The notes: a model not told the origin generated them from the letters alone. DNA of 63,630 bases from Candidatus Bathyarchaeia archaeon (GCA_049515895.1 JBEKTQ010000017.1:1-63630), one strand, 5' to 3'; positions 919 to 15,136 are shown, counted from the stretch's first letter. A program made the numbers and translations.

Positions 919-1059
919 CCTCAAAAAGCACTTCTCAACTCTCGTTTGCTTTAACCTCTAAAATGTCAAAAATGCCATGCTTTTGAGCTAAATATGTACT
1001 AAAAGCTGATAAACCCCTTTTTTCACTACATCCCCATTTAAGGCGAGAAGGGACAAAAG

Positions 1060-2541
1060 ATAGGCTGCGGTATCTTCGGAGCAAAAAACTTTGAAAATCA
1101 AACGGTCTTTCCATATGTTTATTGGGGTCTCCGCGCCCAGAATCATCGCGGACATCAATCCCACGGCTTTCTCACGTATGACGACAAACAGTTTCATGTT
1201 TACAAAAGCTTGGATTTGGTTCCAAGGCTGAAAAACGAGGCTATACATGAATGGTTTGACCGGTTGCCTGGATCAGTCGGAATCGGAAACGTGCGCTACA
1301 CAACCTCGGGCAAATGCGATGATGCCTCAATTATAGATGGCACCCAGCCAGTAGCCGCCTGTTCAGGAAGAATAAAACTTGCTTTGTCATTTAACGGCAA
1401 CATTGTTAACACTTTGCCTCTCAAGAAAGAAATGGGCGAAAACTTTTCCGATTTCTACTTTAACTGCGACTCAGATGTGGTCTGCCATAAGTTGCTTCTC
1501 GGGCTAAAACAAGGCAAAAACTTAGAATCTGCGGTTCGATCTGTCATGGAAAGCCTCGACGGAGCATTCTCAGTTACGGGACTGACCGGCGACGGTGACT
1601 TTTTTGCCTTCAAAGACCCGCATGGAATAAAACCCTTGTGCGCTGGACACGATCCAGCAGGAGCAACCTACGCGTTCTGCTCTGAAACCGTCGGGTTAGA
1701 TATGAACAGCTTCATCAGGGATTTTGAACTAAACCCAGGCGAACTGGTCACTGCTTCAAAAGATGGCTTCAAACGCATACAAATCATTCAAAATCCCCGT
1801 CCTGCTTTTTGCGCTTTCGAATACGCTTATTTTGCTAGGCCAGATTCAAGGTTTGATGGCAAATACGTTTATGAAATCCGAGAGGACTTCGGAAGAAACA
1901 TTGTTAAAGAGTTTCCTGAAATAGTTCGGGATAGCGACATCATCATGTCAGTGCCTGAAACTGGCGATGACCCGGCAATGGGCGTCCACGAAGAGTCAGG
2001 ACTACGCTGGGAGCGTGCATCTAGGCGGCACCGCTACGTTACCGAACGTGCCTTCATACTTCTTAACACGGAACGATTCTCAACTATTGACAAGAAAATC
2101 AACATTTTAGGTTCCAAAGTAGACGGCAAACGGGTCATAGTAACAGAGGACAGCGTTGTCAGGGGAGACACGACGAAAGTCATCATAGACAAACTTCGAA
2201 GAGCAGGAGCCAAAAAAGTCTACGTTTTCGTCACGTTTCCAAGAATCATCGGCCCCTGCTTCTACGGAATCGACATGTCAACTTACGGGCAACTCATCGG
2301 TTCCAAACACAACGTCCAAGAAATCGCCAAAATTATCGGAGCAGACGGGGTATGCTACCAATCAATTGAAGCATTAGTCAATGCGACAGGTCAAAAAGAA
2401 AATGAACTCTGCATGGCCTGCATAACAGGAAAGTATCCGACGCCCTGCGCTCAAAAAATGGCTGACGCTATGAAAAAGAGGTTCCTTGAAGGCTACGAGG
2501 AAAAGTCAAGAATCTACGAAACCGAAGAAGTCCAGCCGTAA
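1060..2541 (+). CDS. purF: Amidophosphoribosyltransferase; probable ATA start upstream of the ORF-track start
   Basis: In-frame CGIFG (Cys codon at 1066) and QNHRG lie upstream of 1210; VRYTT, CAFEYAYFARPDS, EDSVVRGDT PRPP motif, C-terminal CMAC Fe-S motif. Confidence 0.93.
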   Translation: MGCGIFGAKNFENQTVFPYVYWGLRAQNHRGHQSHGFLTYDDKQFHVYKSLDLVPRLKNEAIHEWFDRLPGSVGIGNVRYTTSGKCDDASIIDGTQPVAACSGRIKLALSFNGNIVNTLPLKKEMGENFSDFYFNCDSDVVCHKLLLGLKQGKNLESAVRSVMESLDGAFSVTGLTGDGDFFAFKDPHGIKPLCAGHDPAGATYAFCSETVGLDMNSFIRDFELNPGELVTASKDGFKRIQIIQNPRPAFCAFEYAYFARPDSRFDGKYVYEIREDFGRNIVKEFPEIVRDSDIIMSVPETGDDPAMGVHEESGLRWERASRRHRYVTERAFILLNTERFSTIDKKINILGSKVDGKRVIVTEDSVVRGDTTKVIIDKLRRAGAKKVYVFVTFPRIIGPCFYGIDMSTYGQLIGSKHNVQEIAKIIGADGVCYQSIEALVNATGQKENELCMACITGKYPTPCAQKMADAMKKRFLEGYEEKSRIYETEEVQP

Positions 2542-2599
2542 GTGCAGGTAGCCTTTAGCCCTGCCTCAACCGTCTTGGCAGTAACACGGTGTAATCTTT

Positions 2600-4015
2600 A
2601 TGGAAAAAATAGGCGTACTCGTAGTTTCCTACGGCGCAAGAGAAGTTGCCATGGCTGACGCGCTGCTTCAAAGCACAAGATACCATGTGGAACTCTACAT
2701 CGCCGACAAGCAACGTAACCCCTTCAACGCGGCAAAAGCAGTAAAACATGCTATCATCCCAAGCCTTGACGTGGCGGAAATATGTAAGTTCGCCGAATCA
2801 AACAAAGACAAAATCGACTTCGTTCTGGTGGGGTCAGAAAGACCCATAATCGAAGGCGTCCGCGACCAAATTGAAAAATCAACGGGCATACCCGTCATTT
2901 GTCCAAAGCAGCAGTACGCTATAGAAGTCAGCAAAGTTGAGCAGCGCCTGCTTTTCAACGAGATAGCCCCAGAAGCGAATCCTCGGTTCAAAGTTTTCAG
3001 CCCCGGCGACTATAAAGGAACTGCGGAAGTCAAAGAGGCTGTTTACCGCTGGCTGGACGAACTTGACAACCAAGCAGTTGTTAAACCCGACAAGCCTGCC
3101 TTAGGAAAAGGCGTCGGCGTCTGGGGCGACCACTTCGCCAACCGCGAAGAGCTTTTTGACCATTTCATATCCAACTTCAAATACGGCAACGTCATAATCG
3201 AAGAAAAAATCGACGGGGAAGAATCCAGCTTCATGGCTTTCTGCGACGGTAAACACTTCATTCCCCTTCCAGACACGCGGGACTACAAACGCGCCTTCGA
3301 CGACGATCGGGGTCCAAACACAGGCGGCATGGGCTCATACAAAGATGCGGATGCCAAGCTGCCCTTCTTGACTGAGGCTGAACGGGAAGAGGAACTGGCT
3401 TTGGCGAACAAGATTTTCAACGGGTGGAAAGCCAAAATCAAAGACGACTCCGCACTCAGAGGTGTGCCGCTCTATCTTGCTTTCATGCATACAGGTCACG
3501 GAATCAAAGTTCTTGAAAACAACAGTCGACCAGGCGACCCAGAAATAATCAACCTGCTTGCGCTAATCCAAGACGATTTTGTTGACGTCTGCTTCAAGAT
3601 GATCGAAGGAAACTTGACAGGAGTCAAAATGGAAAATGCGGCATCTGTGTTGACCTATAAAGTCCCACTTGACTACGGCGGCTACGCAGATGCCTTCCCA
3701 AACCAAGCCTACAGAGCAGAGGCTAACAGTTCGGTTGACCTTTCAAAAGCCCAAGCCCTAACCAAGAAATGCGGCAACCGCATCCGCGTTTACCCCGGCT
3801 CCATGGAAATAAGGAACGGCAAAAACTACGCTCTGAAGTCCCGTGCCGTCGGCGTTTTGGGCATCAGCGAAAGCATCGAAGAAGCACGCAACATAAGCCT
3901 CGAAGGTATTCGAGCAATCAGCGGCGGCGGATTGTGGAACAGAACTGACATTGCCTCAAAGCAACATATTGCCAAAGCTGTTAGCCACATGGCGAATTTG
4001 AGGCGCCGCCCGTGA
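2600..4015 (+). CDS. purD: Phosphoribosylamine-glycine ligase
   Basis: GARE, VVKPD..GKGV, IIEEKIDGEE, DYKRAFDDDRGPNTGGMGS, ENNSRPGDPE. Confidence 0.93.
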   Translation: MEKIGVLVVSYGAREVAMADALLQSTRYHVELYIADKQRNPFNAAKAVKHAIIPSLDVAEICKFAESNKDKIDFVLVGSERPIIEGVRDQIEKSTGIPVICPKQQYAIEVSKVEQRLLFNEIAPEANPRFKVFSPGDYKGTAEVKEAVYRWLDELDNQAVVKPDKPALGKGVGVWGDHFANREELFDHFISNFKYGNVIIEEKIDGEESSFMAFCDGKHFIPLPDTRDYKRAFDDDRGPNTGGMGSYKDADAKLPFLTEAEREEELALANKIFNGWKAKIKDDSALRGVPLYLAFMHTGHGIKVLENNSRPGDPEIINLLALIQDDFVDVCFKMIEGNLTGVKMENAASVLTYKVPLDYGGYADAFPNQAYRAEANSSVDLSKAQALTKKCGNRIRVYPGSMEIRNGKNYALKSRAVGVLGISESIEEARNISLEGIRAISGGGLWNRTDIASKQHIAKAVSHMANLRRRP

Positions 4016-5091
4016 AGCGTATCTTCATTTCCGACTGCGAGGGACCAATCAGCAAGAACGATAACGCCTTCGAGTTGGCTTCAAACTTTATTCCCAACGG
4101 GGACAAGCTTTTCACGAACATAAGCAAGTACGATGACGTGTTAGCTGATGTTCTCCGCAAACCCGGCTACTCTGCGGGGAGCACTTTGAAGCTTATCTTG
4201 CCCTTCCTCAAAGCTTACGGCGTCTCAGACAAGCAGATGCAGGAGTTCTCCGCCAAGAATATAGTTCTAATCGCCAATAGCCAAATCACACTTCGCCACG
4301 TGCAAGCCATAGCCGACGCCTTCATCGTCAGCACTAGTTACGAACACTACATCAAAGCCCTGTGCAAAGCAGTGGATTTCCCGTACAAAAACACGTATTG
4401 CACACGCTTAAGCCTTGATAAATGCGGCATTACTCCAAAGGAAAAAGAGCGCCTAAGAGAGGTAGCCCAAGAAATTGCTCAAATGAACACTATTTACATT
4501 CCGCAAAGGGCAAAAACCACAGAAGATTTTTCAGATAGTGACCGGGCGGTAATTCATCGTTTAGACGAAATCTTCTGGAATGAAATCCCACGCATGTTCG
4601 TTGGCAAATTCCTCACGGACGTCGTTACTGTGGGCGGGGAACAAAAGGCTGAGGCAATCCGAGACGTAGTGAATCGTTTAGGCAAGGAATTGGCTGATGT
4701 TATGTACGTGGGCGACAGCATCACTGATATGGAAGCCTTTAAGCTGGTGCAGGCCGGCGGCGGCTTAACAGTTTCGTTCAACGGCAACAGGTACGCGGTT
4801 AGGAACGCTGAAATTGCGGTTTTGTCAGAAAGTAGTCTTGTCACAGCCGTGATTGCGGATTTGTTCTGCAGATTTGGGAAGGAAAAAACCCTCAAAACAC
4901 TTGGCGGCTGGCGTTTCGAAACGCTCAAAAACAGTGGCGTTGAACCTTCCCTGCTTAGACAGCTTTCGCAGTTGCCTGATGACTTGCCGAAAGCTAAAAT
5001 AGTAACAACACAAAACGTGGAAATGCTCATAAAAGAAAGCAGCGCGTTTAGAAATAAAGTGCGGGGAGTAGACGTTGGGAAGCTCGGGTAA
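4012..5091 (+). CDS. HAD-superfamily hydrolase, EhaR/COG4030-like
   Basis: DCEGP motif I, STSY motif II, YVGDSITD motif IV, SFNGN; GTGA overlap with purD. Confidence 0.75.
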   Translation: MKRIFISDCEGPISKNDNAFELASNFIPNGDKLFTNISKYDDVLADVLRKPGYSAGSTLKLILPFLKAYGVSDKQMQEFSAKNIVLIANSQITLRHVQAIADAFIVSTSYEHYIKALCKAVDFPYKNTYCTRLSLDKCGITPKEKERLREVAQEIAQMNTIYIPQRAKTTEDFSDSDRAVIHRLDEIFWNEIPRMFVGKFLTDVVTVGGEQKAEAIRDVVNRLGKELADVMYVGDSITDMEAFKLVQAGGGLTVSFNGNRYAVRNAEIAVLSESSLVTAVIADLFCRFGKEKTLKTLGGWRFETLKNSGVEPSLLRQLSQLPDDLPKAKIVTTQNVEMLIKESSAFRNKVRGVDVGKLG

Positions 5092-5092
5092 A

Positions 5093-6001
5093 ATGCAGAG
5101 AGTGGAAATTGAGGACACTTACGCTGAAGCTTTTACTGGACTTTTTTGCCGCGTAATTGTTACCGCTGACGATCACGAAATCCTTCATAAGGCTGCTGAG
5201 GATTCTACTGCAACGCCTTCTGTTGTTATCGGTAGGACGGAAGGAGGAGTCGAGAGTTACCTCACTCAGAAAGAAACCCCTGACCAGCGGTTAGGAGCAA
5301 TGTTGCAGTTCTGGGGTGAAATCAACCCTAAAAAGGCCTTCGAACAATCGCTCAAAAAATTTGAGACTGAGCTTTCCTACCGCATTCGCCAAGACATCTT
5401 GGTTAAGCCTTTCACCGCAGTCTATGATGCCTTGCCAAACGCCGAGGGCAAATTGGACATGATGGAGACTGTTGGACACTGCGGCGACGGTTACGAATGG
5501 ATTGAAAAACGCTGCGGCAGAGAAGTTATCATTGTCCCATTGATGGTTCCAGACTTCTCAATTGAGCGTTACTTAGGCTACTGCCGAGGGGTTATGGGCG
5601 GCAACTTTTGGGTACTATGCAAAACCAAAAAAGCCCTAAAGTCGGCAGGAAAGAAAGCCTTAGCCGCCATCCACAATGTTCCCGGCGTCGTTACACCCTT
5701 TGACGTTTGCTCAGCAGGTTCTAAACCTGAAACCCATTTTCCCAAGATTGGCCCCACCACAAACCACCTTTATTGTCCATCCCTTAAGCAGAAGTTAGGC
5801 AAGGAATCTCGTGTACCAGAGGGGGTCAGCTACATAGCCGAAATAGTCTTTGACGGGGTTTCTTTAGAAGCCGTTCGAGAGGCGACCAAGTTGGGAATCG
5901 AAGCAGTTCTGGGCATTGACGGAGTGGTCAAGGTTTCTGCAGGGAACTATGGAGGCAAACTGGGTGACTACAAAATAAATTTGCGGGAGTTGTTTCCATG
6001 A
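5093..6001 (+). CDS. ftr: Formylmethanofuran:H4MPT formyltransferase family protein (Ftr paralog, EhaS-like)
   Basis: IEDTYAEAF, ETPD, GDGYE, GVMGGNF, SAGSK, EIVFDG, SAGNYGGKLG; ATG at 5093. Confidence 0.88.
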   Translation: MQRVEIEDTYAEAFTGLFCRVIVTADDHEILHKAAEDSTATPSVVIGRTEGGVESYLTQKETPDQRLGAMLQFWGEINPKKAFEQSLKKFETELSYRIRQDILVKPFTAVYDALPNAEGKLDMMETVGHCGDGYEWIEKRCGREVIIVPLMVPDFSIERYLGYCRGVMGGNFWVLCKTKKALKSAGKKALAAIHNVPGVVTPFDVCSAGSKPETHFPKIGPTTNHLYCPSLKQKLGKESRVPEGVSYIAEIVFDGVSLEAVREATKLGIEAVLGIDGVVKVSAGNYGGKLGDYKINLRELFP

Positions 6002-6915
6002 CCAAATTTGATGTTGTCGGCTTCGGAGCGCTAAACGTTGACACCCTTCTTAAAGTGGAGAAGCTAGCGAGAGCAGAGGAAGAAAGCTTCGTCGAAGATT
6101 ACACTGAATCCTGCGGCGGCTCAGCGGCAAACACTATTGTTGGGTTAGCTAGGCTCGGCTGCAAAGTTGGCTTCATAGGAAAAGTAGCGGGTGACCGCGA
6201 AGGCAAACTGCAAATTGACTGTTTCAACAATGAACGCGTTGATACGACAGGCATAATTCAGGCAAAGCAGGGAAAAAGCGGTTCAGTTTTGGGTTTCGTG
6301 GACAAGAAAGGTGCAAGAGCGCTATATATCAACCCAGGCGTCAATGACGCAATAGAGCCCCGAGAAATAAATTATGGGTATGTGTCCGAAACGAAGTTTC
6401 TGCATTACTCATCCTTTGTTGGAGAAAAATCCTTTCGAGCGCAAAAGAAGCTCTTAGGTGCCCTGCGCAGCGATGTCAAAATTAGCTTTGACCCAGGTTC
6501 AGTGTATGCACAGAAGGGTTTCGCAGCGATAGAACCAATAATTCGAAGTTCTTATGCCTTCATGCCTAACGCAATTGAGCTTGAACTTTTGACCGGAGAA
6601 GCCGATACCCGCAGAGGCGCAGATTTGATGATTGATGCAGGCGTTAAAATTGTCGCAGTAAAGCTTGGCGACAAAGGCTGCTACGTTACAGACGGACAAG
6701 AACAGCTGAGAATTGAGCCTTTCAAAGTTAAAGTCGTCGACACAACTGGCGCAGGGGACGCTTTCTGCGCGGGTTTCCTCTACGGGCTAATCCATGAGAA
6801 AAGCCTCTTCGAATGTGGACGCTTCGCCAATTTTGTTGCTTCGAGGTGCGTCACTGCGATGGGTGCCCGCGCGGGCTTGCCTTATGCTAAAGATCTACTG
6901 GCATTTTTTGGTTAG
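5998..6915 (+). CDS. PfkB/ribokinase-family carbohydrate or nucleoside kinase (EhaT-like)
   Basis: GGSAAN, GLARLG, FDPG, VVDTTGAGDAF; ATGA overlap with ftr. Confidence 0.9.
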   Translation: MTKFDVVGFGALNVDTLLKVEKLARAEEESFVEDYTESCGGSAANTIVGLARLGCKVGFIGKVAGDREGKLQIDCFNNERVDTTGIIQAKQGKSGSVLGFVDKKGARALYINPGVNDAIEPREINYGYVSETKFLHYSSFVGEKSFRAQKKLLGALRSDVKISFDPGSVYAQKGFAAIEPIIRSSYAFMPNAIELELLTGEADTRRGADLMIDAGVKIVAVKLGDKGCYVTDGQEQLRIEPFKVKVVDTTGAGDAFCAGFLYGLIHEKSLFECGRFANFVASRCVTAMGARAGLPYAKDLLAFFG

Positions 6916-7716
6916 ATTGTCGATTATGCTTTGGAAGATTAGTTTTCCGTCGCCATATTGAAGCATCTGCTGTTTGCGCGTCCAATCGGGTTGCTGCCAC
7001 CAATACATCGCCCTCTCTGGGTGAGGCATAAGCCCAAAAATGTTCCCTTCCCTGTTGCATAAGCCAGCAATGTCATAGAAAGAGCCGTTTGGGTTAGCTG
7101 GGTACTCACCGTCGGCAACTTTACCATCTTTGTCACAATAGCGGAAAACAACCATGTCCTTATCGACTAGTCCTGCCAGCAATTCTTCCTCTTTTTCTTT
7201 TGGAAACAATAGCCTGCCTTCTCCATGTGCAATTGGCATCCTCAACACTTTGCCAGAAGCGATTTTGTTTGTAAAGGCACATTTTCCACGGTTTTCATGT
7301 TTGAGATAAATCCACTGGCACTTGAAGCCTGCTGGCTCATTGTTCGTCAGGGTGGCCTCGGGGTAGGGACTCACTCCTTTGAATCCTGGTAGTAAACCGT
7401 ACTCGACCATTATTTGAAAGCCGTTGCATATGCCCAGAATTGGTCTGCCTTCGTCGATGAATGTTTCCATTTCTTTGCCTAACTTGGCGCTAAGATGCCT
7501 CGCGAAAATGACGCCTGATCGCACATAATCGCCAAACGAAAAGCCGCCTGGAAAAACCAGTACCTGATAATCAAGCAGGTTACGTAGTTTCGCCAGTTCG
7601 TTTACGTGCAAATTGTCGGCTTGGATGCCTAACTCTTGGAAGGCCCGCTGGGTTTCAGCGTCGCAGTTAGTTCCGCCAACACGCATAACACAGACTTTGA
7701 TTTCTTCCTGCTTCAT
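6895..7716 (-). CDS. purQ: FGAM synthase glutaminase subunit
   Basis: GTNCD, PGGFSFGD, GICNGFQ, IAHGEG, NPNGS, GLMPHPER. Confidence 0.97.
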   Translation of the reverse strand: MKQEEIKVCVMRVGGTNCDAETQRAFQELGIQADNLHVNELAKLRNLLDYQVLVFPGGFSFGDYVRSGVIFARHLSAKLGKEMETFIDEGRPILGICNGFQIMVEYGLLPGFKGVSPYPEATLTNNEPAGFKCQWIYLKHENRGKCAFTNKIASGKVLRMPIAHGEGRLLFPKEKEEELLAGLVDKDMVVFRYCDKDGKVADGEYPANPNGSFYDIAGLCNREGNIFGLMPHPERAMYWWQQPDWTRKQQMLQYGDGKLIFQSIIDNLTKKCQ

Positions 7717-10098
7717 TTAAAATTCTCCGCTCAACGTTTTCTTCCAGCTTCGGCGCAGCTCTGCAAGTGAAGCGTCAACGACAACTTTCATGTTTAGCCC
7801 GTTGACGACCAGTCGCTCGTCTTTGGTTACTTTGCCGATTTGGGCGCAAATTTTGTCTTTCATTTGTGCCTCAAAGTCTTCTCTGTCCTGCTCTGACACT
7901 TCGAGCAAGAAGCGGCTGTTGGACTCGGAAAACAATACAAAATCGTTACGCTCCAGGTCTCTGCCAGGAACTTTGCTTAAATCCAGCTGCAAACCGTAGC
8001 CGCCAGCAAAAGCCATTTCCGCCGCCGCCACCGCCAACCCGCCTTCGGAAAGGTCATGACATGACCTGATTAAACCCGAGTCTATGGACTTAGTTACTGC
8101 TCTAAATGTACGCTTGGCTTTGGCACCCTTAACTTTGGGAACGCTCGCGCCCAGGCAACCTTTGAGCTTGTAGTATTCCGAGCCTCCAAGCTCGTTGAAG
8201 GTTTCGCCTGTAATGTAAAGCAGGTTGCCTGGCGCTTTCAAATCCATTGAAGTGACAAATTGGAGATTTGGAACAACGCCTATCGCCGTAATAAGCAGCG
8301 TCGGCGTAACTGGACCCATCGGGGATTCGTTGTAAAGGCTGTCTTTACCTGAGATGAACGGTGTCTTAAACGCCACGGCAAAGTCAAAGCACGCTTCACA
8401 AGCTCGAACCAACGAGCCTAAACGCTCTGACTTCTCAGGGTTACCCCACGTAAAATTGTCAAGCAATGCAATTCTTCTTCCCCCCACCGCAACGTTGTTT
8501 CTCACTGCTTCGTCAATGGCTGAAGCTGCCATCCAATACGGGTCGATTTTGCCGTAATTCGGGTTCATGCCGCATGAAATCGCTAAGCCTTTCCAAGAAT
8601 TGTCAAGCGGTTTAAGGACGGTTGCGTCATTTGGACCAGCGTAGGCTCCTTGCAGAGGTTTAAGCGTTGTGTTGCCTTTGACTTCGTGGTCATAAGTGCG
8701 TATAATGCTTTCTTTGCTGGCGATGTTTGGTGCAGCAAGCAGCTGAAGCAGCGCTTCAGTCAGGTTTTCAGGAGCTGGAAACCGAGGTTCCGTGAAGGTT
8801 TGAGTTTCTATAGTTGCTGTTTTCATGCTTTTGCAAGGATTAAACAGGAAAGCCATGTCCATGTCAGCAACTGTCTCGCCGTTGAAATGGAGTTCTAGAC
8901 GGCGTTCAGCCGTGAGCCTGCCTATCGCCGTTGCCTCAACATCCTCTTTCGCAAAAACCGTCTTAACCCGCTCCAGGTTTTCAGGCGGAACAGTTATCAG
9001 CATTCTCTCTTGTGATTCTGAAATGTAAATTTCCCAGGGCGCTAAACCGCGATGTTTCAGCGGCACCTTGTCAAGGTCGATAGTTACTCCGCAGTTGAAT
9101 CTTTCTGCTGTCTCGCCTACGGCTGATGATAATCCGCCTCCGCCAAGGTCAGTTGTCGCCGACGCAAGTTGCAAGTCGCGGATTTCTATTAACGCCCGTT
9201 TCACTTTCTCTTCTTCAATGGGGTCGGCGATTTGCACTGCTGGACGGGAGATTTCCTCTGATTTCTCGGTCAATTCCGCGGAGGCGAAGGTAACGCCGTG
9301 GATCCCGTCGCGTCCCGTTTTTCCACCGGCCAAAACCACAATGTGTTCGGGCTTGGCGTTTTTTGTAAATTTTGCAAGAGGTAAGAGTCCTATGCATCCG
9401 CAATATACGATGACGTTGCCAGTGTAGCTTTCGTCAAAGTAAATGGCTCCGTTGACGGTGGGGATTCCCATGTTGTTTCCGTAGGCGCTTATGCCCGCCG
9501 TGACGCCCATGTAAACGTATTTTGGGTGCTTCACGCCAGCGGGAAGCTTGCTGTAATCGTAGTCGAGTGGTCCGAAGCCTAAAACGTCCGTGCAAGCAAT
9601 CGGGTCTGCCCAAACGCCTAGGATGTCTCTAATTACGCCGCCGACACCGGTGGCTGCTCCGCCGAAGGGTTCCACAGCGGATGGGTGGTTATGCGTTTCA
9701 ACTTTTGCCGCTATGCCGTAGCCTTGGTCGAAGCGGACGATGCCCGCGTTGTCTTCGAAGACGCTGAAGCACCATGGCGCCTTGATTTGTTTGGTGGCTT
9801 TTGCGATGTAGGTTTTGAAAAGGCTGTCAATTTCTTTTCCATCAAGAAGGATTTTTCCTTTGAAGGTCTTATGGTAGCAATGTTCTGACCATGTTTGACT
9901 GATTGTTTGCAGCTCCACGTCGGTAGGATTTCTTCCTTCGCATTTGAAGTACATTTGGATGCTCTTCATTTCTTCAAGGCTTAAGCCCAACGCTAATTCG
10001 TTGCTGGCTTCAGCAAGTTGCTGGTCGCTGGCATTGGCTAAAGCTGCTTCATAGAGAGCATAGTTCGTTTTGCGCGGCTGGTAAATGTCCGAGTTCAT
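7717..10098 (-). CDS. purL: FGAM synthase subunit PurL
   Basis: WSEHCYHK, ETHNHPS, GAATGVGG, SESQERM, SGKDSLYN. Confidence 0.97.
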   Translation of the reverse strand: MNSDIYQPRKTNYALYEAALANASDQQLAEASNELALGLSLEEMKSIQMYFKCEGRNPTDVELQTISQTWSEHCYHKTFKGKILLDGKEIDSLFKTYIAKATKQIKAPWCFSVFEDNAGIVRFDQGYGIAAKVETHNHPSAVEPFGGAATGVGGVIRDILGVWADPIACTDVLGFGPLDYDYSKLPAGVKHPKYVYMGVTAGISAYGNNMGIPTVNGAIYFDESYTGNVIVYCGCIGLLPLAKFTKNAKPEHIVVLAGGKTGRDGIHGVTFASAELTEKSEEISRPAVQIADPIEEEKVKRALIEIRDLQLASATTDLGGGGLSSAVGETAERFNCGVTIDLDKVPLKHRGLAPWEIYISESQERMLITVPPENLERVKTVFAKEDVEATAIGRLTAERRLELHFNGETVADMDMAFLFNPCKSMKTATIETQTFTEPRFPAPENLTEALLQLLAAPNIASKESIIRTYDHEVKGNTTLKPLQGAYAGPNDATVLKPLDNSWKGLAISCGMNPNYGKIDPYWMAASAIDEAVRNNVAVGGRRIALLDNFTWGNPEKSERLGSLVRACEACFDFAVAFKTPFISGKDSLYNESPMGPVTPTLLITAIGVVPNLQFVTSMDLKAPGNLLYITGETFNELGGSEYYKLKGCLGASVPKVKGAKAKRTFRAVTKSIDSGLIRSCHDLSEGGLAVAAAEMAFAGGYGLQLDLSKVPGRDLERNDFVLFSESNSRFLLEVSEQDREDFEAQMKDKICAQIGKVTKDERLVVNGLNMKVVVDASLAELRRSWKKTLSGEF

Positions 10099-10346
10099 TG
10101 CCGCTCCTCAAGAGTTACAGTGTAGTTGTCTTTGGTTGGGTTTGCGAGAAGGCGTTTGCTCATCTCTTCCGTTTTCGTCTTTGCTTCTTTAATTGTTGCT
10201 GCGTCAAGTGTGACGGTGTAGACTTTGCTTACGTCTACAGCTTCTACTTTGTAGCCGAGTTCGTTTAGCAGACGAGCTGTTGTTTCTCCTTCAGGGTTGC
10301 TATGGCCTGGTTTGAGGCTAACTTCGATTTTGGCTCGGTATTTCAT
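10095..10346 (-). CDS. purS: FGAM synthase subunit PurS
   Basis: LKPG..NPEG and LLANP motifs, 83 aa, overlaps the purL start. Confidence 0.92.
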   Translation of the reverse strand: MKYRAKIEVSLKPGHSNPEGETTARLLNELGYKVEAVDVSKVYTVTLDAATIKEAKTKTEEMSKRLLANPTKDNYTVTLEERQ

Positions 10347-10405
10347 AAATCCTTTAAATTATGCATAGGGGATTTAAACGCTTTCGTCATGAAAAAAGCA
10401 AAGTT

Positions 10406-11485
10406 TTACGTCAAAACCAGCCTTTTGTTTTTGTACTTTATTTCGACGGTTTGCTTATCAGTTATTTTGCCTATTATTTCGGGCTTTGCGCCCTCGTTCT
10501 CCAGAGTGCTCATTGCTTTGTCGGCTTCCGTTTTGTCAATGATTATGCCGAAGCCCCATCCCATGTTAAACGTTTTGAACATTTCCTCGTCAGAAATGCT
10601 GTAGTCTAGTTCGGCGGCGGTTTTTTGGATTAATCCGAATATGGGTTGTGGTCTGAAGTTGGTAAATTCAAATCCTATTCCATTGGAAAAATTAGCCAGG
10701 TTGTTGAATTTCATGTAGGCGTCACCTGTGATGTGGATTGCTGCTTTGACTTTGACTTTTTTGGCTAACTTGAGAATCGGCTTAACATAGATTTTTGTCG
10801 GCTCAAGCGTTTCAAGCACGATTTCCCTGTCCAAGCCGTCTGGGACATCACTCGGCTGATATTTTCCTCCCCACTGCTTAAACAGGATTTTTCTTACCAT
10901 TGTTAAGCCGTTGCTGTGCAATCCGCTACTTGGTAAGCCGATTATTGGGTCTTCCGGTTTGATATTTTCGCCCGTTATAATTTCTTGCTTCTCAACAGTG
11001 CCAACCGAGGCCACTACCATGTCAAAGCCTGCGTTGTCCACAACACCTTTTATTATTTCTGCAACGTCGCCTGTTTCACCGCCTGTAACTGGGCATTCCG
11101 CTTCAGAGGCGCCTTGAATAATTCCTTTGAGCCACTCTCTTACAAGGCGAGGTTCACTGGCTTGCGCATGAATGTTGTCGGCTATTGCGAGTGGTCTAGC
11201 TCCTGAACGAATTATATCGTTGACGGCCATCGCTACCGCGTCAATCCCTATTGTGTCATATTTCCCTGCCAGTTGAGCCAGAAGAACTTTTGTGCCCACA
11301 CCTTCGATAACGAGGTCCAAGAAGGTGTTTTCTCCAACTGGAAAAATATTGCCGTAGGGTAAACGCATCACGTTGCCAAAGTGGCTATGCTTGTAGGTTT
11401 CTTGCAGGTCTTTTAGGACTTTTTTTGATTCGACGCGTTGTTGCCGGTTTACGCCTGCGTCGGTGTAAGTGTAATTTTTAGGCAA
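10406..11485 (-). CDS. purM: AIR synthetase (phosphoribosylformylglycinamidine cyclo-ligase)
   Basis: YTDAGVN, EGVGTK, GGETG, SSGLHSNG, HITG, TFNMGWG. Confidence 0.96.
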   Translation of the reverse strand: MPKNYTYTDAGVNRQQRVESKKVLKDLQETYKHSHFGNVMRLPYGNIFPVGENTFLDLVIEGVGTKVLLAQLAGKYDTIGIDAVAMAVNDIIRSGARPLAIADNIHAQASEPRLVREWLKGIIQGASEAECPVTGGETGDVAEIIKGVVDNAGFDMVVASVGTVEKQEIITGENIKPEDPIIGLPSSGLHSNGLTMVRKILFKQWGGKYQPSDVPDGLDREIVLETLEPTKIYVKPILKLAKKVKVKAAIHITGDAYMKFNNLANFSNGIGFEFTNFRPQPIFGLIQKTAAELDYSISDEEMFKTFNMGWGFGIIIDKTEADKAMSTLENEGAKPEIIGKITDKQTVEIKYKNKRLVLT

Positions 11486-11552: not shown

Positions 11553-11921
11553 TCATGTTTTGCTGGTTTTTTGGCCTATCAATTCGAGAGGTTCTTGAGG
11601 TTTAACAGGCTTCAGGAGATAGGCGTCTGGGTGAGCGCTTTTGTTATCCATTGTTGGAAAACCTGTAATTACGATTTTAACCATTTTGCCTCTTGGGTCA
11701 GCTAGTTTATGCAAAAGGTCCATTCCATTCATATCTGGAAGACAAATATCAATCAGGGCAACGTCATAAGCTTTGCAGTATGCTTTTTGAATTGCATCTT
11801 CCCCAGTTTGGGCAGTGTTAGTTTGACACCCGTTTTTCTGCAAGATGCGCGAAAATGTCCGGGTTATGTTTTCGTCGTCATCGATAATTAAGATGTTAAT
11901 GTTTGCTTTATCCAAATTCAT
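11553..11921 (-). CDS. Single-domain response regulator receiver
   Basis: ILIIDDD, LIDICLPDMNG (phospho-Asp), ITG, LLKP. Confidence 0.88.
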   Translation of the reverse strand: MNLDKANINILIIDDDENITRTFSRILQKNGCQTNTAQTGEDAIQKAYCKAYDVALIDICLPDMNGMDLLHKLADPRGKMVKIVITGFPTMDNKSAHPDAYLLKPVKPQEPLELIGQKTSKT

Positions 11922-12066
11922 TTTCCATCCCAAAAAATGAACTGCCCATAATGGTTTTTTACTTCCGCATTCAGTTTAAGAACTATTATTACTGAAATGG
12001 AATACTCAAATAAAAAGTAATATATTGTCCCGAACCCAACAAAAGCAAGCCTGAGGTAAAAGGCGT

Positions 12067-12108
12067 TTGCGGTCGTAGTCTAGCTTGGTTAGGACATCAG
12101 GTTCCCAA
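12067..12108 (+). repeat. att site: orphaned 5' half of tRNA-Gly
   Basis: ttgcggtcgtagtctagcttggttaggacatcaggttcccaa, repeated at 16093 with one C/T difference. Confidence 0.95.
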
Positions 12109-12109
12109 G

Positions 12110-12964
12110 ATGGACAATGGTAAAGACTTCGATTGGGAATCTTATAAGCAATGGTTAAAGTCCAAGTACAGTAAGCATTATGTCGATAACGTCTTTGCTT
12201 ATACAAGAAAGTATCTTGATTGCTTTTATGATGTATCAAAGATTACCGTTATGCCGAATACAAACAAAGATAACGTAATTGACGCACTTATCGCATTTTC
12301 TAAGTATATGGGTTGCTATGAGCAGTTTAAGCAAAAGCTAACAAACTATGACATCAAGAGGCATAAACAAAACTGCATTGAATCATTTTTGCGAATATTT
12401 GCAGCAAGTGATAGTGACATACTGGATTGGTACAGCAAGGCTATAACTGCACTAAGACCGAATGAACGGTTATTTCTCAAATTTACAAAGCTAATCGGAG
12501 CTAGAAAGGAAGAATGCATAAACAGCTTCAACCTTATTATCCAGCTGCAAAAAGAAAACAAGCTGTCAGAATACTACAATAAAGAACTAAGTTGCTTAAT
12601 GCACTTCAAGTATGGCAACCTGTTCTTGCGTATTAAGAAAAACCTCTTCATCAGTTTCGTACCTGAAACCTTAATCAATGAAATAGCAAGCAGTACATCA
12701 ATAACGTATCCAGCAATAAGGAAAAGGTTGAACCATAACCATTTGACAGTTCGTATATCAGAACTTAGGGATTATTATGGCACATATCTTTTACAGCATG
12801 GTATTCTAGAACAAGAGGTTAATCTATTGCAAGGTCGAATTCCTGTTAGCGTTTTCTGTAAACACTATTGGAGTCCTAAGCTGGGTGAATTGAGAAACAG
12901 GGTGTTTAAGGCAATTGAACACATGGAAGTTCAGCAACAGCAACCGATAACAACAACGCAATAA
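12110..12964 (+). CDS. int: Tyrosine integrase, catalytic C-terminal fragment Int(C), SSV1-like
   Basis: GAR (catalytic Arg), ELRDY, LLQGR, KHY (catalytic Tyr); starts directly after att. Confidence 0.9.
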   Translation: MDNGKDFDWESYKQWLKSKYSKHYVDNVFAYTRKYLDCFYDVSKITVMPNTNKDNVIDALIAFSKYMGCYEQFKQKLTNYDIKRHKQNCIESFLRIFAASDSDILDWYSKAITALRPNERLFLKFTKLIGARKEECINSFNLIIQLQKENKLSEYYNKELSCLMHFKYGNLFLRIKKNLFISFVPETLINEIASSTSITYPAIRKRLNHNHLTVRISELRDYYGTYLLQHGILEQEVNLLQGRIPVSVFCKHYWSPKLGELRNRVFKAIEHMEVQQQQPITTTQ

Positions 12965-13851
12965 CCTTTTCTTTCTATCTTTTTTGAACAACCACTTATT
13001 ACAGTCCTTAATCGTTGACACTCTTCATTATTCCATTTTTGGTAGAAATGTTAAGGCTTAGAAATGTTAGACTAAAACTAATAGGGAATTTCACTACTTA
13101 ACTAAGTTTTTGAATGCCAAAAATGTTTACTAAAATTTCGTTGGTAGTTACTACATCTAGTTAACGGAAGCATTTTGAAGTTCTTTGCTTAACCTCCATG
13201 TGACAAAACCGATTGCAGCGACAACGAAACTTAGGATTGTAAAAGTGTCTAACGAATCCATGGTATAAGATGGGATAGACCAGTAGACAGATAGTCTGGA
13301 TGAATAAGTTGAACAAGTACACCGTAACCCCATGCTAACAAACCGAACAAGAAAAGAAATTCTCCAGCAACCTTTAAAACAATCTGCTTTAGATGCGCAG
13401 GCATGAGGCATAGTTCCTATGTTTCTTGAAGTCAAGTTCTGAATGCCCTTAATAAGAATTTACCTGTAATTTCTTGTTTTAATTAACCCTGTTGTATCGT
13501 TACGACTTTTCACCAATTTAGTTTTATAGAAACGTTAAGAGAATAGAAATGTTAGGTTAAAAGCTAAAGGGGATTTCCCTATTCTGCTAAGTTTCCATTT
13601 ATACGTTTTAGCTTCGATTTACTCTTAGCCCTATTTGCTACTGTCAGAAAGGGGTACATGGTTGCACCTTTTTTAGAGTCTCATTCTAGAATTTAGGTTA
13701 GAATTAGACAGGGTATTTTAAAACGTCATTCTAAATTTAGGCTTTCATTAGATCAAAAAGTAAGATTCAAAAATTAGCTTTTTTCGTGCCTAGGTACACT
13801 AATAAAAAAAAATAACAGAAACTTTAACGCTTTTTCTGGGTAATTTAATAA

Positions 13852-14556
13852 CTAAGGCATTTTCACTTTTTCATAATCATATATGAAAAGTGGTGTTTCA
13901 ATTAGAAATGGATCTATGGAGCTTACATCGCTAACATAGATAGGCTGCATAGATTTACCTCTGAATTTGTCATAGATTTGCTCAAAACCTCTAGGAGCAT
14001 ATTTTGGTGTAAATAATTTAAAATGAGATAGCCAATCTGCTGCTGGGTAATGAATAACATTAAGCAAAAAAGCACCAGCTAAAGCATCTCTTACAACCCT
14101 CAAATTTGCTTTTGAAAGATTATCTCCGAAATCGTGCTTAATATCGTTATAAGAATCCCACCATTCAGGTTTAGCCTCTTTGAAAGGTATAATCTTCATC
14201 CTCTTTGGGAGACACTTGAAAGTAACTTCCTCAGATGATATACCATATATTTCGTTAAAGGCACGTACTCCACTTGTTAGTGTTCCCAATTTGTCATCTG
14301 CTCTTCTCAAAATTTCTTTGCAAGATTCTTTTTCCGAAAACAGATGGTATCTTGCCATTTCTTTAAATGCAGAATCCACATGAGCGCCAATAGCTAAAAG
14401 TAGATTAGCTAATCTGAAAGAGTAAGTTTTTTCATTTCCTTCTAAGTAGGGAACATAATCTAAGAAATCTTCAAATTGTCGTTCCAAATCTTTGTAGTAT
14501 TCCCAAAAACCACCATTCTCAAAAGTAGGTTCGAATCCCTTTTCTGACTTTGCCAT
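13852..14556 (-). CDS. Hypothetical cargo protein (all-alpha; YNDIKH motif resembles HEPN-like domains)
   Basis: 234-aa ORF with ATG start; WWDSYNDIKHD. Confidence 0.6.
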   Translation of the reverse strand: MAKSEKGFEPTFENGGFWEYYKDLERQFEDFLDYVPYLEGNEKTYSFRLANLLLAIGAHVDSAFKEMARYHLFSEKESCKEILRRADDKLGTLTSGVRAFNEIYGISSEEVTFKCLPKRMKIIPFKEAKPEWWDSYNDIKHDFGDNLSKANLRVVRDALAGAFLLNVIHYPAADWLSHFKLFTPKYAPRGFEQIYDKFRGKSMQPIYVSDVSSIDPFLIETPLFIYDYEKVKMP

Positions 14557-14597
14557 GTTATAGCCTATTTCTACGCTTTTCAGATTTAAGACTTATC

Positions 14598-14816
14598 TCA
14601 GTACCTTTGTCTTTTTCTAGCGTGATACGATGAATGGTGACTTCTACTCATTTGGTCAAGATTACTTCTTCTAAAGTTGCCCTTGTTTTCATCTCTATGG
14701 TGAATAACGCTATTCCCTAAATTACCGTACATATTCCTTGCAACATCTCTATGCACTAATCTATTGCTGTCGTTCCACCTTGGGTAACCATTCCTATCTT
14801 TGTGAAACCCACCCAT
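14598..14816 (-). CDS. Minimal HNH endonuclease-domain protein
   Basis: GYP..VHR..A, IHHRDENKGNFRRSNL, HHSSYH. Confidence 0.8.
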   Translation of the reverse strand: MGGFHKDRNGYPRWNDSNRLVHRDVARNMYGNLGNSVIHHRDENKGNFRRSNLDQMSRSHHSSYHARKRQRY

Positions 14817-14968
14817 ATTTTACTTCACCACGATTATGTTATATTAGGTCAAACAGTGGTTTAAATCCGACTCTCCCATCCAATTTTTTACTTTTACTAC
14901 ACCCTCTAGTATTCTGAGATGTCGTTAAGGACCTTGGTTTTTAAAGCCTATAAACGTCAAAGAAGGTT

Positions 14969-15136
14969 ATGGAAAAAGTTGATTTAACTAGACCTTGTGA
15001 CGCTTGTGGAAAGTTCATAGGCGGTTTCTTTGTGTATTGTCCTAAATGTCAAATTTACTTCTGCTATATTTGTTGGTTTGAGCTAATGTGTCTCCACAAA
15101 CTTTTTTGTCTTATGTGTGGCGGTAAACTTAGCTGA
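14969..15136 (+). CDS. 55-aa Cys-rich zinc-finger protein (four CxxC); absent from the ORF track
   Basis: Manual translation MEKVDLTRPCDACGKFIGGFFVYCPKCQIYFCYICWFELMCLHKLFCLMCGGKLS; TATA-like ctataaa upstream. Confidence 0.7.
   Translation: MEKVDLTRPCDACGKFIGGFFVYCPKCQIYFCYICWFELMCLHKLFCLMCGGKLS

Follow-up and report, generated by a model that had tools for sequence, protein, structure and literature searches.

How is glycinamide ribonucleotide (GAR) formylated in an archaeon in which neither of the two known GAR transformylases, PurN and PurT, can be found? The question is raised by a stretch of 63,630 nucleotides (GCA_049515895.1 JBEKTQ010000017.1:1-63630; in the following, the window) from a peat archaeon, Candidatus Bathyarchaeia archaeon. 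The first 11.5 kb of the window contain two convergent operons, purF-purD-HAD-Ftr2-PfkB on the plus strand facing purMSLQ on the minus strand. The last three genes of the first operon encode a protein of the haloacid dehalogenase (HAD) superfamily, a paralog of the formyltransferase Ftr (Ftr2) and a ribokinase-like kinase of the PfkB family, and are here called the trio.

The three proteins, on balance, probably carry out step 3 of purine synthesis together, the conversion of GAR to formylglycinamide ribonucleotide (FGAR), without PurN or PurT and with a handling of the 5'-phosphate in which it is taken off and put back. Comparative genomics gives good support to the trio as the source of the missing GAR formylation. 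A GAR-formylation module had been proposed in a sequence-only reading of the window, and the proposal is now supported by the retention of the operon in 80 of 80 related loci, by a near exclusion between the trio and PurT or PurN, by an exchange of Ftr2 for a PurN-like protein and FolD, and by a natural fusion of a PurN-like domain to the HAD domain.

The third step and the five-gene unit

The genes of the two operons are the following:

1060-2541, plus strand: purF, amidophosphoribosyltransferase, step 1 (TIGR01134, 293 bits)
2600-4015, plus strand: purD, GAR synthetase, step 2 (PF01071, PF02844, PF02843)
4012-5091, plus strand: EhaR-like HAD-superfamily protein, 359 residues (HAD matches in Pfam and NCBIfam)
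5093-6001, plus strand: Ftr2, Ftr paralog, 302 residues (PF01913, PF02741, NF002554)
5998-6915, plus strand: PfkB ribokinase-like kinase, 305 residues (PF00294)
6895-7716, minus strand: purQ, glutaminase subunit of formylglycinamidine ribonucleotide (FGAM) synthase, step 4 (NF002252, 315.6 bits, above cut-off)
7717-10098, minus strand: purL, FGAM synthase, step 4 (TIGR01736, 697.9 bits, above cut-off)
10095-10346, minus strand: purS, FGAM synthase subunit (TIGR00302, 69.4 bits, above cut-off)
10406-11485, minus strand: purM, aminoimidazole ribonucleotide synthetase, step 5 (TIGR00878, 264.4 bits, above cut-off)

The profiles thus confirm, in gene content and coordinates, the steps 1 (PurF), 2 (PurD), 4 (PurQLS) and 5 (PurM) called by the sequence-only reading. 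The tight coupling of the trio to purD, claimed there as well, is likewise confirmed: the GTG start of the HAD gene overlaps the TGA of purD as GTGA, the ATG of Ftr2 begins 1 bp past the TAA of the HAD gene, and Ftr2 and PfkB share an ATGA overlap. The 3' end of PfkB and purQ, on opposite strands, overlap by 21 bases.

The absence of step 3, first noticed in the cluster, holds for the whole genome (3.18 Mb in 53 contigs, 100% complete, 4.87% contamination). A genome-wide search for purN and purT gave no match to PF00551 (PurN), and the best match to the PurT models TIGR01142/NF006766 reached only 49 bits, in a CarB-sized open reading frame (ORF) of 1091 residues. The same genome yielded no PurH1 formyltransferase domain and no formate-tetrahydrofolate ligase (FTHFS) above cut-off. 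A canonical Ftr is encoded on another contig, besides Ftr2, and Mch and FwdA are present, so that formyl-methanofuran and formyl-tetrahydromethanopterin (formyl-H4MPT) should be available. The one-carbon (C1) gene content is that of an organism that uses H4MPT and methanofuran and has no folate-type formyl pool. A listing of sequencing runs gave 13 of DNA, most of them peat metagenomes, and none of RNA. Since PurL, PurQ, PurS and PurM are canonical, FGAR must be produced somehow, and with a canonical PurL the expected substrate is the phosphorylated FGAR. As a separate observation, Mch gives two matches in this genome (C3:65849-66808 and C24:73-849; 351 and 248 bits), the second at a contig end, which could be a paralog or stem from the contamination of the assembly.

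The arrangement of the first operon was compared in 80 related loci from a scan of species-representative genomes, all of them Bathyarchaeia-type records with 57-80% HAD identity. The loci were mapped by tblastn with pur and trio queries only, hydrogenase genes lying outside that query set. Up to contig limits, the order purF-purD-HAD-Ftr2-PfkB is kept in 80/80 loci. PurD was found in 79/80, Ftr2 in 79/80 and PfkB in 77/80, and the five missing genes (at four loci) all fall at contig ends. The position of the purQLSM operon varies: convergent in 52 loci, not seen within 10 kb in 12 and inverted in 2. The conserved element is therefore the five-gene unit and not the wider neighbourhood, and its recurrence across 80/80 loci of other species is more than chance. 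The same order extends to the more distant families f7, f9, f11, f57 and f58, so that the pur linkage of the trio, which the earlier proposal needed, is conserved. The sole break of the trio among the 80 loci is an insertion of about 1.9 kb between HAD and Ftr2 (L071:11080-12998).

Distribution against PurT and PurN and the exchange of the formyltransferase

All genome comparisons were made within one class, the Bathyarchaeia (201 genomes), together with a sample of 301 genomes of the window's phylum (44 members of the class and 257 others). In the phylum sample the HAD protein occurs in 40/301 genomes, namely in 40/44 class members and in 0/257 others. Three of the four class members that lack it carry a strong PurT (254-472 bits) and the fourth has no purD.

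Within the class sample, 117/201 genomes carry the HAD protein and 182/201 carry purD. PurT is found in 9/201, all nine without the HAD protein; this count excludes a match in G429, rejected because it is a PurK (443 bits), so that no co-occurrence remains there. PurN or a PurN-like protein is found at E <= 1e-10 in 61/201, in 20 of them above the curated cut-off. The genomes with purD and no HAD protein have PurT (9) or PurN or its like (54) in 63 of 66 cases, and the 18 genomes that lack both the HAD protein and purD are probably purine auxotrophs, judging from their gene content. Conversely, 111 of the 116 genomes with both HAD protein and purD show no PurN- or PurT-like match; the five exceptions are four genomes with a variant operon, described below, and G356. 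At E <= 1e-5 the window's PfkB matches nothing in two of the PurT genomes, G002 and G117, and in G246 it finds only weak partial matches. Profiled against purN and purT as had been suggested, the trio and PurT/PurN are thus almost mutually exclusive within the class.

Ftr2 follows the same pattern. The scores of a profile made from 28 Ftr2 sequences are bimodal, at least 376 bits for the Ftr2 type and at most 260 bits for canonical Ftr. Scores of the Ftr2 type are reached in 110/117 genomes with the HAD protein and in 0/84 without it; the seven that fall short are the four variant-operon genomes and three in which a contig end truncates the locus (G109, G376, G392). Together with an identity of 34-38% to the canonical Ftr (Ftr1) of the same genomes, these scores bear out the claim that the Ftr copy in the operon is distinct from canonical Ftr.

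The variant operon retains HAD and PfkB but has a folate-type formyltransferase where Ftr2 would stand. Two genomes, G310 (f58) and G314 (f8), have the order purF-purD-PurN-like-HAD-PfkB-FolD. A third, G069 (f8), is rearranged, with purF-purD-PurN-like at one site and HAD and PfkB overlapping FolD about 12 kb away, and in G037 the PurN-like gene stands next to purD. FolD is the enzyme that makes 10-formyl-tetrahydrofolate (10-formyl-THF). The variant-operon genomes carry only canonical Ftr and none of the Ftr2 type. In the trees of HAD and PfkB their copies form clades of their own (support 100/97 and 100/100), and G310 groups with f8 and apart from G344 and G352, members of its own family that have the Ftr2 operon. 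The exchange therefore occurred at the level of the operon, probably by transfer. The Ftr2 and PurN-like versions of the operon are functional alternatives, and the swap is the best available evidence, by gene content, that Ftr2 would be the enzyme of formyl transfer in step 3.

The association of the PurN-like protein with the HAD protein can also be covalent. P0303, a metagenomic protein of 599 residues, consists of a PurN-like domain fused to an EhaR-type HAD domain, its N-terminal domain being 53% identical to the PurN-like protein of G069. In the four HAD-associated PurN-like proteins, S(S/T)GRD replaces the SGxG(S/T)N loop near the N-terminus, which holds the GAR 5'-phosphate in E. coli PurN, a role for which a literature search gave no confirmation. 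The loop is kept in four canonical PurN and in five PurN-like proteins from genomes without the HAD protein (f54, f55, f62), and the catalytic N-x-H and D residues are kept in all PurN-type proteins aligned.

A separate observation concerns families f55 and f54, whose sole candidate for step 3 is a PurN-like protein below cut-off (86-103 bits, about 270-315 residues, with a long C-terminal extension). Examples are G365:C65:1707-2261, G308:C21:10143-10721 and G304:C119:5002-5592, with some 30 more; the SGxG(S/T)N loop is kept and no HAD protein is present. By their sequences these proteins appear to form a divergent PurN subfamily worth naming.

The three proteins, the proposed route and its rivals

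Many close homologues of the HAD protein carry the Joint Genome Institute (JGI) product name 'energy-converting hydrogenase A subunit R', in support of the EhaR-like label first given to the gene. The names of close homologues, for the HAD protein as for Ftr2, place them in the Bathyarchaeia. The HAD protein has all four motifs of its superfamily: motif I with the nucleophile D8, motif II with S107/T108/S109, motif III with K212 and motif IV with G234-D235/D239. In 56 diverse sequences there is no change at D8, E10, G11, P12, K212, G234, D235 and D239, and hardly any at S107, T108 and S109. Motif I reads D-x-E-G-P, with Glu at +2 instead of the Asp of D-x-D. The AlphaFold2 model (pLDDT 96.6) has a Rossmann-like fold with a cap, and its nearest structure is AF1437 (PDB 1y8a; TM 0.83/0.94, sequence E 1.3e-31), followed by phosphoserine phosphatases (SerB-type) and ThrH and, further down, 5'-nucleotidase. 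ThrH has phosphotransferase activity. The HAD protein is accordingly proposed, from its motifs and fold, to act as a phosphatase or phosphotransferase on the 5'-phosphate of GAR. Its C-terminal tail (residues 343-359: S343, R347, R351, G352, L358) is conserved. Among longer homologues, P0407 was uninformative, its HAD domain being followed by a low-complexity tail that is probably read-through.

Ftr2 matches both lobes of the Ftr family (PF01913, 150.7 bits; PF02741, 179.9 bits) and NF002554 (334.6 bits against a cut-off of 297), and PDB 1m5h at E 2.9e-54. Its score for the equivalog TIGR03119, 232 bits, lies below the cut-off of 292.6. It differs from canonical Ftr by an insert of 9 residues (residues 76-84) and by 13 group-specific positions. 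E250, conserved in 28 Ftr2 and 15 Ftr1 sequences, aligns with the Glu of ...yEIV... in 1m5h; in FhcD the oxyanion-stabilising catalytic glutamate is Glu252, according to an excerpt of PMC6926001 (this and the other papers cited by PMC number are drawn on in excerpt throughout). Profile scans of Ftr2 found neither a PurN domain (PF00551) nor a PurT domain (ATP-grasp), so that Ftr2 would be a GAR transformylase by function only. It is encoded with pur genes and occurs where PurN and PurT were not found. Its status as a paralog, beside a canonical Ftr, argues for an acceptor other than that of the methanofuran/H4MPT pathway, as far as sequence comparison can tell. The insert of Ftr2 and the C-terminal tail of the HAD protein could be elements of partner contact. 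A complex prediction for Ftr2 and HAD, run without controls, scored 0.01 and 0.00 where the mark is 0.32, and speaks neither for nor against binding.

PfkB matches PF00294 with 182.3 bits, and its N-x-D and DTTGAGD motifs align with those of the ribokinases 3ry7 and 1vm7. Its best NCBIfam match is the ribokinase equivalog TIGR02152, but with 166.5 bits it stays under the cut-off of 299.65 and is no member, and it reads GGSAAN where ribokinases read GGKGAN. PfkB is kept in every complete operon, in Ftr2 and PurN-like variants alike, and is proposed from these motifs as the 5'-kinase that would restore the phosphate on the formylated riboside.

Ftr transfers formyl groups from N5-formyl-H4MPT to the primary amine of methanofuran and back. 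By analogy, Ftr2 would pass the formyl group from N5-formyl-H4MPT to the glycinamide amine of the GAR riboside, after the HAD protein had removed the 5'-phosphate of GAR or while it held it; the ribokinase-like PfkB would then restore the phosphate using ATP, and the product FGAR would be used by the canonical PurLQS. These parts are held with different confidence. That Ftr2 is the step-3 formyltransferase acting on GAR is quite likely, given its context and its replacement by a PurN-like protein. H4MPT as the formyl carrier, proposed by analogy with Ftr, is an evenly balanced suggestion; formyl-methanofuran would be a less likely donor. The cycle of phosphate removal and return by HAD and PfkB, read from their families, is plausible yet falls somewhat short of an even chance. 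HAD and PfkB are kept with either formyltransferase and are missing with PurT or ordinary PurN, so their role should concern the acceptor and not the donor. The altered loop of the PurN-like proteins, the HAD motifs and the retained PfkB together fit a phosphate that is removed or held, a riboside that is formylated and a phosphate that is restored.

A number of points weigh against this reading. Three genomes with purD (G316, G341 and G319; 98, 94 and 90% complete) gave none of the three systems, and G356 has the Ftr2 operon plus a PurN-like gene beside a FolD-like gene on another contig. The genomes compared are kin and not independent, with only a handful of independent switches (f7, f8, f10, f52, f58 and the PurN families), so that the pattern of distribution is strong but amounts to no statistical proof. 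In the variant operon PfkB is very divergent (34-37% identity, long branch), and the formyltransferase gene precedes HAD, a gene order unlike the proposed order of reactions. EhaR-type HAD proteins also occur, by Atlas leads, in bacteria. They are also found fused to a divergent ATP-grasp domain (weakly PurT/PurK-like) in P0312 and P0329 (899-964 residues, D-W-E-G-P motif), in one case (L102:10001-12895, plus strand) among a restriction-modification methylase, a UvrD-like helicase, a SIR2-like protein and AcnX, with no pur genes. The HAD family is thus not exclusively linked to purines. These fusions had been considered as PurT-HAD Rosetta stones and were rejected, the match to the PurT model being about 33 bits over about 30 residues. 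As to the donor, Brown et al. (PMC3261824, in excerpt) write that N10-formyl-H4MPT is not considered to donate formyl groups and that the labelling data for Methanobacteriales are inconsistent. Finally, Ftr2 has gained the conserved arginines R48 and R99, which might equally well bind a phosphate, and the detour through the dephosphorylated form is thermodynamically unneeded, as PurL would pull the reaction.

The last two points lead to the most serious of the rivals, that Ftr2 formylates the phosphorylated GAR directly and that HAD and PfkB are accessories and not steps of the pathway; HAD might for instance be a subunit recognising ribose 5-phosphate, while PfkB salvages ribosides leaked by ester hydrolysis at the HAD site. 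The fusion or adjacency of HAD to the formyltransferase, the loss of the SGxG(S/T)N loop in the HAD-associated PurN-like proteins and the arginines of Ftr2 would all suit such a division of labour, and the excerpt of PMC6926001 puts the cost of the analogous transfer, in which formyl-H4MPT donates to a furfurylamine, at just +4.4 kJ/mol, in line with a riboside detour that is energetically unneeded. Nevertheless, no variation is seen in the catalytic HAD motifs, the nucleophile Asp and the Lys among them, and this suggests a genuine transfer of phosphoryl groups. The presence of PfkB in every complete operon of both variants is also much for a mere salvage enzyme. Direct formylation is considered unlikely, though well worth keeping in view.

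It is very improbable that the trio is unrelated to purines, serving instead as subunits of the Eha hydrogenase or in C1-cofactor or sugar metabolism, with step 3 left to a PurP paralog or another enzyme. In the excerpts of PMC3087415 the Methanothermobacter homologues are co-transcribed with eha and read as hydrogenase subunits, and the ATP-grasp/HAD fusions lie outside pur contexts. Profile scans (Pfam/NCBIfam) of the genes in 1-14.6 kb of the window nevertheless found no hydrogenase family; the eha membrane and [NiFe] genes that should stand alongside an Eha subunit R, S or T are not among them. The strict complementarity of the trio with PurT and PurN, and the replacement of Ftr2 by PurN-like and FolD inside the same pur operon, speak for purine synthesis. 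As for PurP, the genome has two tandem genes resembling the formate-dependent aminoimidazolecarboxamide ribonucleotide formyltransferase (G000:C8:20807-22446, minus strand), which at first sight would offer a spare enzyme. The same tandem pair is present in the PurT genomes G002 and G246, the trio genome G029 has one copy and G069 none, and in the excerpts of PMC3261824 Methanobacteriales have a single PurP. The PurP duplication is therefore unrelated to the missing step, and a PurP paralog was rejected as the step-3 enzyme because its copy number does not track the trio.

The faintest chance is given to a pathway in which Ftr2 or the PurN-like protein formylates glycine first and a divergent PurD joins N-formylglycine to phosphoribosylamine to give FGAR; PurD in most trio genomes does score about 240-274 bits (238.8 in the window; TIGR00877 cut-off 288) against mostly 300-500 in PurT/PurN genomes, but HAD and PfkB are left unexplained and the type of PurD is not strict, G309 having 397 bits beside HAD and the HAD-less f54 genomes G304, G329 and G337 scoring low. 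For the same reason a divergent PurD was rejected as a co-varying part of the trio module. In G309 (f57; L103, G309:C1:94000-112000), unlike nearly all trio genomes, the HAD-Ftr2-PfkB trio adjoins the high-scoring PurD, and PurD type and trio are not strictly linked.

Some features of the locus itself should be recorded. PurF appears to start with ATA at 1060, followed by G-C-G-I-F-G (Gly, then the catalytic Cys). The frame is open from 1042, with no ATG, GTG or TTG before the catalytic Cys (window 1042-1068), and ATA-GGC-TGC aligns with the ATG-GGC-TGC of relatives. The start codon is ATA in the two closest relatives (L007, L009), ATG in three and ACG in L082 (6/8 probed loci matched); from this alignment ATA looks like a conserved non-canonical start codon. 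Just past the pur cluster lies a response-regulator gene:

11553-11933, minus strand: response-regulator gene

Beyond it, the GC content falls to 0.353 within 12000-15000, against about 0.46-0.49, and an ORF at 12110-12964 (plus strand) has a match to PF16795, the integrase domain of archaeal phages (E 3e-07). An integrated element may thus lie directly past the pur cluster and the response-regulator gene.

Significance and comparison with known systems

The gap at GAR formylation has stood since at least 2011. In the excerpts of Brown et al. (PMC3261824), purN and purT were not found in two Archaeoglobi, in M. kandleri and in four species named as Methanobacteriales, and M. thermautotrophicus is a purine prototroph despite having neither. 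The excerpts of Chadwick et al. (PMC9012536) likewise describe the anaerobic methanotrophic archaea ANME-1, the Archaeoglobales and the Methanobacteriales as lacking both PurN and PurT. They also mention uncharacterised Ftr2 paralogs in ANME-1, ANME-2a/b, Archaeoglobales, M. kandleri and M. marburgensis. According to Kaster et al. (PMC3087415, in excerpt), the original annotation of Methanothermobacter EhaS and EhaT was as a formyltransferase and a ribokinase, and both are co-transcribed with eha. The taxa without PurN and PurT (PMC3261824, PMC9012536) therefore overlap those with Ftr2 or EhaS (PMC9012536, PMC3087415), as far as these excerpts go; ANME-2a/b reportedly hold both Ftr2 and PurN, a co-occurrence (PMC9012536). 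Two background points of the sequence-only reading are thereby borne out, namely that the Methanothermobacter eha operon encodes the Ftr-like EhaS and the ribokinase-like EhaT (PMC3087415), and that a step-3 enzyme is lacking in several archaea, here the Archaeoglobi, the Methanobacteriales, M. kandleri and ANME-1 (PMC3261824, PMC9012536). A search of the literature (full texts, supplements aside) found no paper that joins the GAR formyltransferase gap to the Ftr2/EhaS paralog.

A wider view can be offered tentatively, and with some doubt: that H4MPT-using archaea (Bathyarchaeia and, by the literature, Methanobacteriales, Methanopyrus, Archaeoglobi and ANME-1) run step 3 through a HAD/Ftr2/PfkB shunt not known until now, EhaR/S/T not being hydrogenase subunits. 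In such a shunt GAR would be dephosphorylated by the EhaR-type HAD, the riboside would be formylated from N5-formyl-H4MPT by the Ftr paralog, and PfkB would rephosphorylate it. If this is true, the place of a purine module in the eha operon would be explained by Eha making good the C1 units that biosynthesis withdraws, and three 'hydrogenase subunits' would be reassigned. The GAR formyltransferase that Methanobacteriales, Methanopyrus and Archaeoglobi lack (PMC3261824), as does ANME-1 by a later account (PMC9012536), would receive a name, and with Ftr2 the GAR transformylases would gain a third class, homologous to neither of the others. H4MPT-bound formyl would feed biosynthesis directly, which was previously thought unlikely, and this would be the first case of an anabolic use of formyl groups from H4MPT. 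Hundreds of genes that now bear the names catabolic Ftr, EhaR or ribokinase would have their annotation corrected, and metabolic models of rumen and gut methanogens would gain a real step-3 gene, possibly a lineage-specific target.

Among known systems, the closest by name is that of Methanothermobacter, where EhaS is Ftr-like, EhaT is ribokinase-like and the HAD protein bears the JGI name EhaR, so that it looks like the same trio (PMC3087415, in excerpt). There the genes belong to the eha operon, whereas here they stand in a pur operon without hydrogenase context, the orthology being read from the names and that excerpt only. AF1437 of Archaeoglobus fulgidus (1y8a, from structural genomics) is of the same family and fold as the HAD protein, with 25% identity, and its lineage is reported without PurN and PurT in the excerpts of PMC3261824.

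Canonical Ftr (PDB 1ftr, 1m5h, 2fhj) shares with Ftr2 the two-lobe family, the catalytic Glu and a formyl transfer to or from a primary amine (PMC6926001, in excerpt). Unlike Ftr, Ftr2 is a separate paralog in the pur operon and not with genes of the C1 pathway, and it tracks purD and HAD, not methanogenesis. Most trio genomes, that of the window included, carry a canonical Ftr elsewhere besides Ftr2.

The handling of the phosphate would resemble riboflavin synthesis, in which the 5'-phosphate is taken off by a HAD phosphatase, acting on 5-amino-6-ribitylamino-2,4-pyrimidinedione 5'-phosphate (ARPP), the free alcohol is processed and a kinase, riboflavin kinase, later adds a phosphate again. 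To our knowledge, no such detour of dephosphorylation and rephosphorylation is known in purine synthesis.

The trio would bring about the net reaction of PurN and PurT from the same position in pathway and operon, and the distributions exclude one another. Ftr2 is related to neither in sequence or fold, and the proposed donor is different, formyl-H4MPT instead of the 10-formyl-THF or the formate and ATP used by PurN and PurT. Unlike PurN and PurT, Ftr2 is always accompanied by two extra proteins, HAD and PfkB.

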